Made by a program: the position numbers and the translations under genes. A stretch of 64,000 nt of DNA, from NCBI RefSeq assembly GCF_041248615.1, contig NZ_CP158426.1; one strand, written 5' to 3'. A model generated the notes under the pieces. The model made no database searches and was not told where the DNA came from. It saw nothing but the letters and a program-made list of their open reading frames with translations. The stretch is from Escherichia coli. Lineage in GTDB: Bacteria > Pseudomonadota > Gammaproteobacteria > Enterobacterales > Enterobacteriaceae. The first letter of the stretch is position 1. Every line of letters starts with the position of its first letter. Positions 11,442-54,285 of the stretch are shown in pieces.

Positions 11442-12029
11442 TTACTTTTGGAAGGCTTTTTTTAAGCTGATTTTGGAAATCAGCTCTGTCAGTGAAAGGA
11501 CCATTGTTGATCGCACAGCCTGTTGGTAACGCTGAATTTGCATTGCATACAAACTGGAGTCTGCAGGTTCAAACTGTGGCGGCGGTGGTAACGCCGCCAC
11601 GCAATGCAGTTCACCAAAGGGTCCAAGGATTTCGTCGTCGGTAAACGCGTACTCGTTGCCGTCGTGATTTAGCTCTTCACGCAATGCCATCAGCAGTTCC
11701 GCATCTTCGTATTCCTGGCGGTTAATGACACCCAACCCGTAAATGAGTTTTAAACGCACAGAAAGATCGCCCAGCGGACCGTCGCCGTCGAGTAACGGTT
11801 CTACAGCATACTTCACCGCGTAATCGTCTTTGCGGAATACCTGAAGCACCAGAAGATTTACCGCCTCGGTCAAAAGCTCGACGGCGGTGATCAGAAAGCT
11901 TCGCACGGTTTTGCCAGCATTCAGACGCTCAAGCACACGGTTTTCAAAGGCCTGGGTTTGTTCCATTGTTGCCTGCATATCTGACAATCTGTTATTCGGG
12001 CGCAGGGTATCCTGCGCCTGGTCCACCAT
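11442..12029 (-). CDS. mtlR: mannitol operon repressor
   Basis: 195-aa ORF directly downstream of mtlD; its start shares one base with the mtlD stop. Confidence 0.92.
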   Translation of the reverse strand: MVDQAQDTLRPNNRLSDMQATMEQTQAFENRVLERLNAGKTVRSFLITAVELLTEAVNLLVLQVFRKDDYAVKYAVEPLLDGDGPLGDLSVRLKLIYGLGVINRQEYEDAELLMALREELNHDGNEYAFTDDEILGPFGELHCVAALPPPPQFEPADSSLYAMQIQRYQQAVRSTMVLSLTELISKISLKKAFQK

Positions 12030-13177
12030 TATTGCATTGCTTTATAAGCGGTTACTGCCTCGGATACAACCTCGCTGTTGGCATCAAGACCGGAAATCTG
12101 TGCCAGCGCGGCTTGTGGGCCTTTGTCGGCAATCAGCGCTGCCAGTTCCTGAGCCTGCGGATCATCTTCACTGCGGAAGTGCATTGCAGCGGCAATACCT
12201 TCAATCAGGTTTTTATGTGGCAGACCATATTCCAGCGTTCCGAGCAGTGGCTTGATCAGACGGTCGCCAGCACTCAGTTTACGCAGCGGCTGACGGCCTA
12301 CGCGCTCTACATCATCTTTCAGATACGGGTTCTCGAAACGACCGAGGATTTTCTGGATGTACGCCGCATGTTTGTCCGCGTCAAAGCCGTAGCGCTTGAT
12401 CAGTACCGCACCGCTTTCTTCCATCGCACCTTTTACCACCGCGCGGATTTTCTCGTCGAGAATCGCATCACGAATGGTCTGATGACCGGCCAGTTTTCCG
12501 AGGTACGCGGTTATAGCATGACCCGTGTTCAGGGTGAAGAGTTTACGTTCGACAAATGCCATTAGGTTGTCGGTTAACTCCATGCCTGGGATGTTCGGCA
12601 GCGCGCCTTTGAACTGCGTTTTATCAACAATCCATTCGCTGAATGTTTCTACCGTCACTTCCAGCGGATCGTTGGTTGCAGAAGCCGAAGGCGGCACGAT
12701 GCGGTCAACGGCGGAATCGACAAAGCCAACGTGTTCTTCTACCCACGCTTTGGCATCTTCCGGCAGGGCGTTCATCACATGGCCTTTCAGCTGCGTGGTG
12801 CCGCGTACCATGTTTTCACAAGCGATGATGTTCAGCGGGGATTCATTACCTTGTTCTTTACGTTTCACCAGCCCTTTGGCGATAGCCGGAGCAATACGTT
12901 CCAGCACAACCGGGCCAACGGCGGTAGTGACTAAATCGACCTGAGCAATCAGATCAACGACATCATCACCAATGCTGCTGACAGCATTGACGCCGGAAAC
13001 GGTATCTACCTGCTCGGTTTCACCGACCACATGAACCTGATAGCTATGACGGGCATTCAGGGCATCAAGTACCACCTGATTGACATCGGCAAACGTCAGT
13101 TGGATACCCGCGTCTGCCAGCAGTTTACCGATAAAGCCACGACCGATATTACCTGCGCCAAAATGTAATGCTTTCAT
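12029..13177 (-). CDS. mtlD: mannitol-1-phosphate 5-dehydrogenase
   Basis: ORF 12029..13360; start placed at the ATG giving [17 protein letters not shown]... (382 aa, Rossmann GxGxxG). Confidence 0.95.
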
Positions 13178-13206
13178 AGTATTAACCTTCATCAATGTTT
13201 TTACCC

Positions 13207-13261
13207 GAGAGGGCTGGGGTGAGGCTTTTCCCTCACCCAAACCCTCTCCGTGAGGAGAGGG
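13207..13261. repeat. REP-like palindromic element in the mtlA-mtlD intergenic spacer
   Basis: Inverted repeat GAGAGGGCTGGGGTGAGG / CCTCACCCAAACCCTCTC plus a second short hairpin CCCTCTC..GAGAGGG read directly. Confidence 0.45.
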
Positions 13262-13271
13262 TAGGATTGGA

Positions 13272-15185
13272 TTACTTACGACCTGCCAGCAGTTCCAGCA
13301 CTTCATCCACGCTGGTGGTGTGTGCCAGACGTTCGATGACGGACTCATCATCCAGTGCATTGGTCAGGCTGGTGATAACCTGAATGTGCTCGTTGTTACG
13401 GGCAGCAATACCAATTACCAGACGGGCAATGTCATCTTCTTCTTCACCGAAGCGCACGCCTTCCGGGTACTGGCAGAACACCACGCCCGTTTTCAGTACG
13501 CGATCTTTCGCTTCAACCGTACCGTGCGGCACCGCGATAGACTCACCCAGATAAGTCGGGGTCAGTTTTTCACGATCCAGCATCGCCTGAACGTATTCTG
13601 GCTCAACGTAACCGCCTTTCACCAGCTGCTCGCCAGCAAAACGAATCGCTTCTTCTTTGGTGGCCGCTTTGCGACCGAGGAAGATGTTCTCCGCGCCTAG
13701 CTTGAACAGGTTAGCACTGGAATCGTCAAAGCTGTCTTTCAGACTGTCTTTCACTTTCACTTCGTTTTCAGTATGGCGCTGAGCAGCAACCAGACGTTCG
13801 GTCAGGCTGGTGTACAGGCCGCTGTCGAGGAAGTTGGTCAGCGAAATATGCTGTGCCTGCGGAACCTGGCGCATAGCGCGTTCGGTCAGGTCACGGTGAG
13901 TGATGACCAGGTCCACATCTGGCGGCAGGTTGTTGATCGCGCTGTTAGTAACAGAAATCTGCGACAGACCTGCATCCTGAATTTTCTTACGCAGCACACC
14001 TGCGCCCATCGCACTGGAACCCATACCGGCATCACAGGCAACGATGATTTTACGTACGTGGCTCAGGTCGTTAGTCACATCGCCTGCAGACAGCGGAGAC
14101 GCACCTTTAGACTCAGCTTTCATGTCCTGCATACGACGAGTTGCTGCTTCAATATCATCTTCTTCTTTCACTTTGCTGGTTTTCAGCAGAATGGCAGAGA
14201 CAACGAAGGAGACAGCCATCGCCGCACACACACCCGCGATGTTAGCGAAGTATGCACCTTTTGGTGTCATCGCCAGTACAGCAAGGATAGAGCCCGGAGA
14301 TGCCGGAGAAACCAGACCACCGCCCAGGATAGTCAGCGTGAACACGCCAGTCATACCACCGAGGATAACGGCCAGAATCAGACGCGGATTCATCAGCACA
14401 TACGGGAAGTAGATTTCGTGGATACCGCCCAGGAAGTGGATGATTGCCGCACCGCCCGCAGACTGTTTAGCGCTACCACGACCAAAGAACATGTACGCCA
14501 GCAGCACGCCCATACCCGGACCTGGGTTAGCTTCAATCAGGAAGAAGATGGATTTACCCAGTTCATGGGACTGCTGAATGCCCAGCGGCGAGAAGATACC
14601 GTGGTTAATGGCGTTGTTGAGGAACAGGATTTTCGCCGGTTCAACAAAGATAGACGCCAGCGGCAGCATGTCATGGACAACCATGAAGTTAACGCCCGCA
14701 GCCAGCATTTTGGACAGGGCTTCAACAATCGGGCCAATGCCGAGGAATGCCAGAATAGCGAGGATCATCCCGATGATGCCTGCGGAGAAGTTATTCACCA
14801 GCATCTCAAAACCGGATTTGATCTTACCGTCTACCCAGCGGTCGAAGTGCTTAATGCACCAGCCGCCCAGCGGACCTGCAATCATAGAACCGAGGAACAT
14901 CGGCATGTCTGCGCCGACGATAACGCCCATGGTGGTAATGGCACCGACTACGCCGCCACGTTCGCCGCCTACCAGCTTACCACCGGTATAACCGATCAGC
15001 AGCGGCAGGAGATAAGTGATCATCGGCCCGACCAGCTTCGCCAGCGTTTCGTTCGGTAACCACCCTGTTGGAATAAATAACGCGGTGATGATACCCCACG
15101 CGATAAACGCGCCGATATTTGGCATCACCATGTTGCTGAGGAAACGACCAAAGCTTTGCACTTTGATCTTAATATCGGATGACAT
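13272..15185 (-). CDS. mtlA: PTS mannitol-specific EIICBA component
   Basis: 637-aa [30 protein letters not shown]...; EIIC membrane domain with C-terminal EIIB/EIIA. Confidence 0.96.
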
Positions 15186-15328
15186 AAAAACACCCCTTCT
15201 TATGTTTGCTGTCGCGCAGGCTGGAAGCCCGAGGTTTTTTGTTAATGTGGCGGCAGAGGTAGCCGGACCTTGTAGATACTGCGAAATCTGGCACTGAATC
15301 GGTTAACTGTCCAGTCGACGGCCTTTTG

Positions 15329-15505
15329 TGTGATATCAGTCACATAAATATAGGGGGTAGAGAGGTAATTGACGTGATGCTCATCACAAAACTCTTGTGT
15401 AAAAAAGCAACAAGGCGGCGATTTTCGCTAAAAATGGCATTTAAATGTGAGTGATGTCACATTTTTGTTTTGATGGTTTGTTGAATTTTTGTGATCTGAA
15501 TCACA
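15329..15505. promoter_or_regulatory. mtl operon promoter region with an array of CRP-type sites (TGTGA-N6-TCACA)
   Basis: Three perfect sites: tgtgatatcagtcaca (15329-15344), tgtgagtgatgtcaca (15446-15461), tgtgatctgaatcaca (15490-15505); one near-perfect, cgtgatgctcatcaca (15373-15388). All upstream of mtlA on the minus strand. Confidence 0.6.
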
Positions 15506-15721
15506 AGATATTTTCTTACGGCGTTCACCTGATGTGATCTACAGCATGTTATGCCTTCGTCATGAAATCGTTATGTAACTAAGCAACTCATCACCTCTTA
15601 AAATTATTCTTTGGTGTTATGGCGAGAATCGCGAACCCGGATTATTGTCAAAATATCAGCCTGACTCCCTTCTGGCTGCCAGCCAAAAAACAACACCGAT
15701 AAACGTGAATCCGAGGCAGAT

Positions 15722-16084
15722 ATGTTTCTAAACTATTTCGCGTTGGGAGTGCTGATCTTCGTCTTTCTGGTGATTTTTTATGGAATCATCGCGATACATG
15801 ACATCCCTTATCTGATTGCCAAAAAGCGCAACCATCCCCATGCCGACGCTATTCATACGGCGGGCTGGGTGAGCCTGTTTACTCTACATGTTATCTGGCC
15901 GTTCCTGTGGATCTGGGCGACGCTCTATCAACCGGAGCGCGGCTGGGGCATGCAGTCACATGTTGCGTCGCAAGAGAAAGCGACTGACCCGGAAATCGCC
16001 GCACTTTCTGACCGAATTTCCCGGCTGGAGCATCAACTCGCCGCCGAGAAAAAGACTGACTATTCCACGTTCCCGGAGATCTAA
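15722..16084 (+). CDS. yibI: small inner-membrane protein YibI
   Basis: 120-aa ORF with N-terminal TM segment; 2 bp before yibH. Confidence 0.82.
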
Positions 16085-16086
16085 AT

Positions 16087-17223
16087 ATGGATCTATTGAT
16101 TGTTTTAACTTACGTGGCGCTGGCGTGGGCGGTCTTTAAAATCTTCCGCATTCCGGTGAATCAGTGGACGCTGGCGACGGCGGCGCTGGGAGGCGTGTTT
16201 CTGGTGAGTGGTTTGATTTTGTTGATGAACTACAACCACCCTTACACTTTTACCGCGCAAAAGGCAGTGATAGCGATCCCCATCACGCCACAGGTGACGG
16301 GAATTGTTACTGAAGTCACTGACAAGAATAATCAGCTTATTCAAAAGGGCGAGGTGCTTTTTAAACTCGACCCGGTTCGTTACCAGGCGCGAGTTGACAG
16401 ACTTCAGGCTGACCTGATGACGGCGACGCATAATATAAAGACGCTGCGCGCGCAGCTCTCTGAAGCGCAGGCCAACACCACCCAGGTTTCAGCGGAGCGC
16501 GACCGTCTGTTTAAAAATTATCAACGTTATCTGAAAGGCAGCCAGGCGGCGGTGAATCCGTTCTCGGAACGTGACATCGACGATGCGCGGCAAAACTTCC
16601 TCGCGCAGGACGCGCTGGTGAAAGGCTCGGTGGCGGAGCAGGCGCAGATCCAGAGCCAGCTCGACAGTATGGTTAACGGCGAGCAATCGCAGATTGTGAG
16701 CTTAAGAGCGCAACTTACTGAAGCAAAATATAACCTTGAGCAGACTGTCATTCGCGCGCCGAGCAATGGCTACGTTACTCAGGTACTGATCCGCCCAGGT
16801 ACATACGCAGCTGCCTTGCCGTTGCGTCCGGTGATGGTTTTCATCCCCGAGCAAAAACGGCAAATTGTCGCCCAATTTCGGCAAAACTCGCTGTTACGTC
16901 TGAAACCCGGCGATGATGCGGAAGTGGTGTTTAACGCGCTACCTGGGCAGGTGTTCCACGGCAAACTGACTAGCATTTTACCTGTCGTGCCAGGCGGTTC
17001 TTATCAGGCGCAGGGGGTATTGCAATCATTAACGGTCGTGCCCGGCACGGACGGTGTGCTGGGAACCATTGAACTGGACCCTAACGATGATATCGATGCC
17101 TTACCCGACGGCATCTACGCCCAGGTGGCGGTTTACTCCGACCATTTCAGCCATGTTTCGGTGATGCGGAAAGTGCTGCTAAGAATGACCAGCTGGATGC
17201 ATTATCTTTATTTGGATCATTGA
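16087..17223 (+). CDS. yibH: HlyD-family membrane fusion-like protein YibH
   Basis: 378-aa ORF with N-terminal TM segment, long coiled-coil and beta-barrel region typical of HlyD/EmrA-like proteins. Confidence 0.88.
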
Positions 17224-34452: not shown

Positions 34453-34729
34453 TATAAGAAGCTGGTCGCATTGGGTATTCATTGCCTGATGCGACGTTTG
34501 CGCGTTTTACCAATTCAAATGTCTACGTCTTGAATGACTGAATATTGATTGAACTTAATTACGAGCATCCTCGCATCTTTTCAACAAGTTACTGCACACC
34601 GTTATTCTCCTTCCGAGCGGCATTCCTGAGTCAACTTTATCCCCCTGACGGCCCATATAAATCGCGCTATCGTGATTGTTATCGCTAATTGTGTGTGTAT
34701 CGTGTGTATAATCATGGAAGGGCAGGGAT

Positions 34730-54229: not shown

Positions 54230-54285
54230 CCCATCAGGTGATTGTGCTGAGTTACCTGATGCGACGCCGACAATTCTCATCATCG

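Follow-up and report, generated by a model that had tools for sequence, protein, structure and literature searches.

Genomic context of the mtlA-mtlD spacer

The window analysed here is a stretch of 64,000 nt (64 kb) from Escherichia coli (RefSeq assembly GCF_041248615.1, contig NZ_CP158426.1), in which mtlA, mtlD and mtlR are encoded on the minus strand and a 94-nt spacer separates mtlA from mtlD, with the coordinates and flanking genes that an earlier note on this DNA had given. Several pig ETEC and O139 E. coli strains match a 701-nt stretch around the spacer at 100% identity. The features of the locus are listed below, with pairing roles as predicted for two alternative folds of the transcript.

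15185..13272, minus strand: mtlA coding sequence
13274-13272, minus strand: mtlA stop codon, TAA
13271..13178, minus strand: mtlA-mtlD spacer, 94 nt
13263..13271, minus strand: linker UCCAAUCCU, 9 nt, from the mtlA stop to the element
13254..13262, minus strand: block C1, (A)CCCTCTCC, 5′ arm of hairpin A
13241..13249, minus strand: block G1, GGAGAGGG(T), partner of C1 (fold A) or of C3 (fold B)
13230..13238, minus strand: block G2, GGGTGAGGG, 5′ arm of the inner hairpin common to both folds
13217..13224, minus strand: block C2, CCTCACCC, 3′ arm of the inner hairpin
13207..13213, minus strand: block C3, CCCTCTC, 3′ arm of the long hairpin (fold B)
13204..13206, minus strand: conserved GGG, closing a mini-hairpin (fold A) or pairing with the CCC of C1 (fold B)
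13178..13203, minus strand: A/U-rich mtlD leader, conserved (~85% identity across Enterobacteriaceae) and at near-constant distance from C3
13190-13186, minus strand: Shine-Dalgarno sequence of mtlD, GAAGG
13177..12029, minus strand: mtlD coding sequence, with its start codon ATG at 13175..13177
12029..11442, minus strand: mtlR

Read along the minus strand, the element has the arrangement CCCTCTCC-tcac-GGAGAGGG-ttt-GGGTGAGGG-aaaag-CCTCACCC-cag-CCCTCTC-GGG, with a structured core spanning 13204-13262. The mtlD frame is stop-free across the whole spacer, so that mechanical calling returns a 443-aa ORF (12029-13360, minus strand) with an in-frame ATG at 13192-13190; an N-terminal extension of MtlD, starting from 13360 or from this ATG, was rejected because other genera have ATA or ATT at that position.

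Elsewhere in the window, a 1,439-aa YadA-type trimeric autotransporter adhesin with ESPR, head, stalk and anchor domains (4968-9287, minus strand) and a 227-aa ORF with no Pfam match (9331-10014, minus strand) sit between yibL and lldP, outside the K-12 gene order; the two presumably form an island of the UpaG/EhaG type.

Predicted structure of the spacer

The spacer had been described in the earlier note as carrying an 18-bp imperfect inverted repeat and a second short hairpin. The former is present as described, with arms at 13207-13224 and 13231-13248 that are complementary at 16 of 18 positions and separated by 6 nt. The latter corresponds to a 9-nt inverted repeat with perfect arms (13241-13249 and 13254-13262) and a 4-nt loop, but it is an alternative to the longer repeat rather than an independent hairpin, since the two share bases 13241-13248 and therefore cannot form simultaneously.

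Folded as sense (mtl mRNA) RNA, the spacer reaches a minimum free energy of −40.2 kcal/mol, against −25.5 ± 3.0 kcal/mol in dinucleotide shuffles (n = 200), giving a z-score of −4.84 with none of the 200 shuffles as good; the folding energy thus lies well beyond the shuffled controls with which the earlier note had proposed to compare it. The z-score is −3.41 for the antisense RNA and −4.82 for the spacer as single-stranded DNA.

Two mutually exclusive folds of about equal stability are predicted for the transcript. Fold A would consist of three tandem hairpins, C1:G1, G2:C2 and CCC:GGG, the last being a mini-hairpin formed by the CCC of C3 and the GGG that follows it, and fold B would be a single long hairpin, G1G2:C2C3, closed by CCC:GGG. 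Constrained folding of the window sequence gives −40.1 kcal/mol for fold A and −40.0 kcal/mol for fold B, with a mean energy difference between the folds of 1.4 ± 2.7 kcal/mol over 67 sequences, and an independent RNAalifold prediction yields fold A, including the CCC:GGG mini-hairpin. Bistability follows from the repeated-block design, because C1 and C3 have identical sequence. Sequestration of the Shine-Dalgarno sequence is seen in neither constrained fold, and its masking by the C-blocks, for which 3–4 pairs are possible at most, was rejected on this ground.

Assignment to the boxC/PIT/TMECO family

The spacer had been attributed to the REP-type elements, a class whose hallmark is a GTAG/CTAC-tagged imperfect palindrome of about 35 nt, present as a high copy number of near-identical units. 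When the comparison with the REP consensus was run, GCCKGATGCGRCG (the GCCKGATGCG type) had no match at up to two mismatches (≤2) within 13178-13271, against 12 matches elsewhere in the window; the best of these, with 0–1 mismatch, lie at 493-505, 34484-34496 and 54254-54266 and are candidate true REPs. The family of the spacer element is boxC/PIT/TMECO instead.

This repeat family has been reported as boxC (Bergler 1992; Bachellier 1999), as PIT (Hoyne and Maher 2000) and as TMECO (Holder et al. 2015, PMC4666352), with a TMECO consensus of CCCTCNCCC N3-6 GGGNGAGGG N3 GGGNGAGGG and 23 copies listed in MG1655 (PMC4666352), from which the K-12 mtl copy is absent. The first three blocks of the mtl element (C1, G1, G2) constitute the boxC/PIT/TMECO signature. 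In alignment with K-12 TMECO #9, located upstream of fabI, and #17 and #18, located between lldD and trmL, the stretch from GGAGAGGG to GGGTGAGGG (core GGAGAGGG-NNN-GGGTGAGGG) shows no variation, and the AAAAG tail is common to all. The first blocks of the E. coli mtl copy are 8 nt rather than 9 nt long, and the copy therefore departs from the strict consensus at two positions, the loop-closing C:G pair, while matching a relaxed pattern with a 7-nt core. The strict consensus is found in 24 of the 67 orthologous mtl elements, which argues that the mtl element is, judged by sequence, a degenerate five-block (C1-G1-G2-C2-C3) member of the family.

When the element was searched by blastn in 'distant' mode in 5,426 E. 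coli genomes, only the orthologous site was returned, boxC copies being missed where their longest exact match is shorter than 11 bases or their E-value lies outside the limit for a 28-Gb database, and the family was therefore set from the published list and the K-12 copies compared. The mtl element is the sole boxC-type copy found in the 64-kb window. A search of Rfam gave no gathering-level match in the whole window and, at E ≤ 10 over 12000-16500, only chance-level matches with E > 3. Rfam has no family for the element, which is a new and degenerate member, built of five blocks, of the known boxC/PIT/TMECO family.

For the intrastrand purine-motif triplex that boxC/PIT/TMECO repeats form as DNA, eight triads are, by inspection, still possible between G2 and the C1:G1 duplex of the window copy; the G-tracts of the window copy are GG, GGG, GGG and GGG, with no canonical G-quadruplex (G4) motif (four tracts of at least three G, loops of 1–7 nt), a motif that is kept in 38 of 67 orthologues.

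The position of the element, a highly stable GC-rich hairpin that immediately follows a gene, is also that of an intrinsic terminator or attenuator, which would lower read-through into mtlD-mtlR. The hairpin is followed by GGGUAAAAAC and no U-tract, a terminator scan of 12900-13600 finds none, and no sigma-70-like promoter from which mtlD could be transcribed was found in the spacer; the element is therefore neither an intrinsic terminator nor an internal promoter. As cited in PMC4666352, a study by Maher found generic PIT/boxC copies to have no promoter, terminator or polymerase-blocking activity in vivo. Termination or attenuation at this site is considered very improbable.

Length alleles of the spacer in E. 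coli

The K-12 spacer, at 229 nt, equals the window spacer plus a 135-nt insertion 5′ of the element, which adds a further CCCTCTCC-type hairpin and two genuine REPs flanking an A/T-rich segment. E. coli spacers of 94, 229, 319, 419 and 520 nt carry 0, 2, 4, 6 and 8 REPs, respectively. The insertion site is the linker at 13263..13271, where other E. coli alleles gain 135–426 nt (the extra hairpin and 2–8 REPs), and in the longest alleles the region from mtlA to the element is built of near-identical units of ~100 nt in tandem. The 3′ 84 nt of the spacer, CCCTCTCCTCACGGAGAGGGTTTGGGTGAGGGAAAAGCCTCACCCCAGCCCTCTCGGGTAAAAACATTGATGAAGGTTAATACT, are identical in all E. coli alleles compared. The edge of the element that faces mtlA, its 5′ border, is a hot spot of REP/BIME expansion.

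Of 5,426 complete E. coli genomes, 859, with O157:H7 among them, have the REP-free junction seen in the window, and about 4,069 carry at least 80% of the K-12 form. Since the long architecture is also found in E. albertii and in one divergent Escherichia representative, the 94-nt allele would most simply have arisen by deletion between two CCCTCTCC direct repeats. Copy number separates the two kinds of sequence: by blastn, the median number of sites in an E. coli genome is 1 for the 71-nt element and 18 for the REP-containing K-12 spacer.

An element of REP/BIME type acting like the intercistronic REPs of malE-malF could be suggested by a GC-rich imperfect palindrome within an operon, and genuine REPs do occur in the same spacer of K-12 and most E. 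coli; however, these belong to a separate insertion upstream of the element, the REP consensus is missing from the element itself, and the block sequences match boxC/TMECO. At the level of sequence this reading is refuted, and its probability is judged to be minimal. The mis-annotation so corrected illustrates that extragenic palindromes in E. coli are not always REPs.

Conservation at the mtl locus

A scan for MtlD, with one genome per species, returned 80 loci. The same five-block element, in the same orientation and just upstream of mtlD, is present in all 66 loci that are not of the Pantoea type, with carriers including Escherichia, Citrobacter, Salmonella, Klebsiella, Enterobacter, Kosakonia, Lelliottia, Leclercia, Cedecea, Buttiauxella, Siccibacter, Franconibacter, Mangrovibacter and others. 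With a covariance model built from 18 of these loci, all 66 score 69–117 bits; in the 64-kb window the model matches the sense strand only at the mtl element (92.7 bits, against 20.1 bits for the reverse strand of that element). Within E. coli, the element is present in 5,404 of 5,426 genomes (blastn, 71-nt query), the 5′ flank alone being variable.

Conservation is highest in the paired blocks, with a mean identity to the window of 0.90 for stem columns and 0.85 for the leader from GGG to the mtlD ATG, compared with 0.30 for loops and 0.55 for four-fold degenerate sites of mtlD. C3 lies 27–31 nt from the mtlD ATG in 66 of 67 sequences, with 40 at exactly 29 nt, and 35 nt from it in the remaining one, whereas the distance from the mtlA stop to C1 varies between 7 and 171 nt among species and is longer still in REP-rich E. 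coli alleles; the element is therefore anchored to mtlD and not to the end of mtlA. As part of the explanation favoured below, and with the same confidence, the element would already have occupied the mtl site in the common ancestor of the Enterobacteriaceae.

Ordinary boxC copies are polymorphic for presence or absence, as is evident in the window itself, where the lldD-trmL spacer is 47 nt long (1005-1051) and lacks the inverted boxC/TMECO pair #17/#18 that is present in the 197-nt K-12 spacer. Across 56 E. coli strains, only 38% of TMECO locus comparisons were unchanged (Holder et al., PMC4666352). Generic boxC-like matches lie downstream of mtlR in some Enterobacter only (L030:3507-3546, L031:3493-3541 and L033:3422-3514 and 3325-3402), and these matches 3′ of mtlR are lineage-specific copies.

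At Pantoea-type loci (Pantoea, Mixta and others), the same spacer holds a different, equally stable GC structure of four blocks (z = −4.65 in locus L074), built from two copies of a GGGGCGGG-loop-CCCGYCCC unit that can fold as a pair of hairpins or as a single long one. These loci are L072, L074, L075, L077, L078, L080-L084 and L086-L088 (upstream of position 1201 in each), among which two records labelled Enterobacter (L072 and L078) carry the Pantoea-type spacer.

Selection on pairing in the sense-strand mRNA

MAFFT alone mis-registers C1 in hairpin A because loop lengths differ, and a covariance-model (CM)-guided alignment was hence used for the assessment of pairing. On this alignment, which favours fold A somewhat, 95.5% of cells are paired for fold A (C1:G1 and G2:C2) and 91.9% for fold B (G1G2:C2C3 and CCC:GGG), the cells counted being sequences and not independent events; the fold B result is reproduced on the MAFFT-only alignment. 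Slid controls reach 33–67% paired, and none of 500 shuffles attains the observed values on most measures, including the percentage paired and the covariation score. In each fold, seven pairs show changes on both sides, mostly in G2:C2 and the bridge, and the compensatory changes include TTC/GAA, CCA/TGG, GGGTGAAAGG/CCTTTCACCC and a paired GA/TC insertion. Covariation is modest because the blocks are almost invariant.

Non-Watson-Crick stem cells, read on the mRNA strand, are G·U in 71 cases and A·C in 7, an asymmetry that fits the tolerance of RNA on the mtl mRNA strand and not that of double-stranded or antisense DNA. The limited retention among orthologues of the G4 motif (38/67) and of the strict triplex consensus (24/67) argues that selection maintains hairpins rather than G4 or triplex structures. 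Clear purifying selection thus acts on Watson-Crick and G·U pairing in the sense-strand mRNA.

These observations bear on whether the mtl copy is an ordinary boxC relic, selfish or neutral, that reflects a property of the DNA (triplex, G-quadruplex or cruciform) and has no role in mtl expression, being kept by family-level constraints or as a recombination hot spot. BoxC/TMECO sequences form triplexes in vitro and have been associated with genome variability in their vicinity (PMC4666352), the sequence bordering the mtl element on its 5′ side is hypervariable, with 0 to 8 REPs, and the element folds well as single-stranded DNA too. However, the window copy has neither the triplex consensus nor the G4 motif, pairing is kept overall in 92–98% of cells with G·U far exceeding A·C, and an element found in nearly all E. 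coli genomes and in 66 species is set apart from ordinary, strain-variable copies such as the lldD-trmL pair. A relic of this kind is regarded as rather unlikely, although block conservation could in part reflect family-level constraints rather than an mtl-specific role.

Proposed role in the mtl operon

The favoured explanation, to which a probability of roughly 0.55 is assigned, is that a boxC-type element kept by selection on RNA pairing provides a stable intercistronic structure in the mtlADR mRNA that sets the expression of MtlA against that of MtlD-MtlR. The identity of the element, its family, structure, conservation and strand are established by the observations above. Of the earlier reading, the structure itself is real, and its placement as an mRNA structure within the operon is compatible with the selection on pairing and with the sense-strand G·U pairs, but the REP family was wrong.

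We infer that the element affects mRNA decay or translation. The structure, tied to the translation-initiation region of mtlD, would act as a barrier to 3′-5′ exonucleases for the mtlA segment, in the manner of the malE-malF REPs, and/or would serve the mtlD-mtlR segment as a structural cap or insulator, by which the A/U-rich context of the mtlD leader would stay constant despite upstream inserts. Either action would yield a fixed ratio of MtlA to MtlD and MtlR. By analogy, the unrelated structure in the same spacer of Pantoea-type loci may lend support to a role as mRNA structure. The 3′-end tables of the Term-seq supplement of Adams (2021), in which the mtl operon is uninduced, hold no 3′ end in the spacer, and no published data on mtlA-mtlD processing, RNase E or Term-seq came up in a literature search.

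The balance of MtlA against MtlD and MtlR, on the setting of which the element would bear, matters because dephosphorylated EII-Mtl sequesters MtlR and so titrates it (PMC13421365). An operator for MtlR, as a DNA site in the spacer, was rejected because MtlR has no DNA-binding domain and acts through CRP at the promoter (PMC13421365).

A more elaborate possibility is a regulated RNA switch or protein site, at which a factor, MtlR or another RNA-binding protein, would select the fold and thereby control translation or cleavage of the mtlD-mtlR mRNA. The two conserved, exclusive folds are nearly isoenergetic, C1 and C3 are both conserved although either alone suffices for a hairpin, and the distance from the element to the mtlD start is fixed; in addition, MtlR, without a DNA-binding domain, was predicted by Anantharaman et al. 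to be an RNA-binding HEPN protein (PMC3710099), and the MtlR of the window (11442-12029, minus strand) keeps an R-x4-H motif of the HEPN type, REELNH. Against this, bistability is automatic from the repeated-block design, the Shine-Dalgarno sequence is free in both folds, and repression by MtlR is explained by its docking on CRP at the promoter (PMC13421365). Such a switch is deemed unlikely. Its strongest form, for which we would give quite low odds, is that a boxC repeat was domesticated in the ancestor of the Enterobacteriaceae as a bistable cis-regulatory RNA before mtlD, with its folds read by a trans factor that tunes MtlD and MtlR post-transcriptionally; the most provocative candidate for that factor is the HEPN-fold, Rx4H-bearing MtlR itself. 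If domestication as a switch were true, the mtl copy would be the first functional boxC element, and if MtlR were the trans factor, it would constitute a second, RNA-level arm of mtl autoregulation.

To our knowledge, no biological function has been found for the boxC/PIT/TMECO repeats, which have been known since 1992. Over time they have been described as palindromes, as triplexes (PMC4666352) and as G-quadruplex switches (PMC5100583), and the mtl copy adds a case in which what is selected is RNA pairing on the sense strand, not the triplex or G4 patterns. Single copy, a well-studied inducible operon and natural alleles with 0–8 REPs make boxC function directly testable at one locus.

Comparison with known systems

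The closest relatives of the mtl element are the boxC/PIT/TMECO repeats, with which it shares an intergenic location and the same blocks in the same order, CCCTCTCC, loop, GGAGAGGG, TTN and GGGTGAGGG, followed by AAAAG. It differs in having two additional C-blocks (C2 and C3), which make a long palindrome, and in lacking a sixth block; in this it resembles the 'tandem inverted' TMECO pairs and their collapsed 'palindrome effect' forms (PMC4666352). It is also fixed in E. coli and orthologous across a whole bacterial family, whereas ordinary copies vary among strains.

The G-quadruplex-hairpin-duplex switch described for HPG1 and HPG2 (Kaplan et al. 2016, PMC5100583) represents the same repeat family read as a G4 with a competing hairpin, and HPG1 has the TTA loop type that is found in most mtl orthologues. 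In the window, however, the first G-tract is GG, and mtl is unmentioned in PMC5100583. The Pantoea-type element occupies the same position, is of about the same size and similar stability, and has a comparable block design with alternative hairpins, although its sequence, composed of GGGGCGGG and CCCGYCCC blocks, is unrelated.

The intercistronic REPs of malE-malF (Newbury et al. 1987) reportedly act as a barrier to 3′-5′ exonucleases. With them the mtl element has in common that it is a stable, GC-rich extragenic palindrome in a sugar-transport operon, without a terminator tail and a candidate exonuclease barrier. It differs from REP/BIME elements in belonging to another sequence family, devoid of the REP consensus, in being single-copy at the sensitivity of BLAST, and in its orthologous position across genera, which REPs generally do not share.
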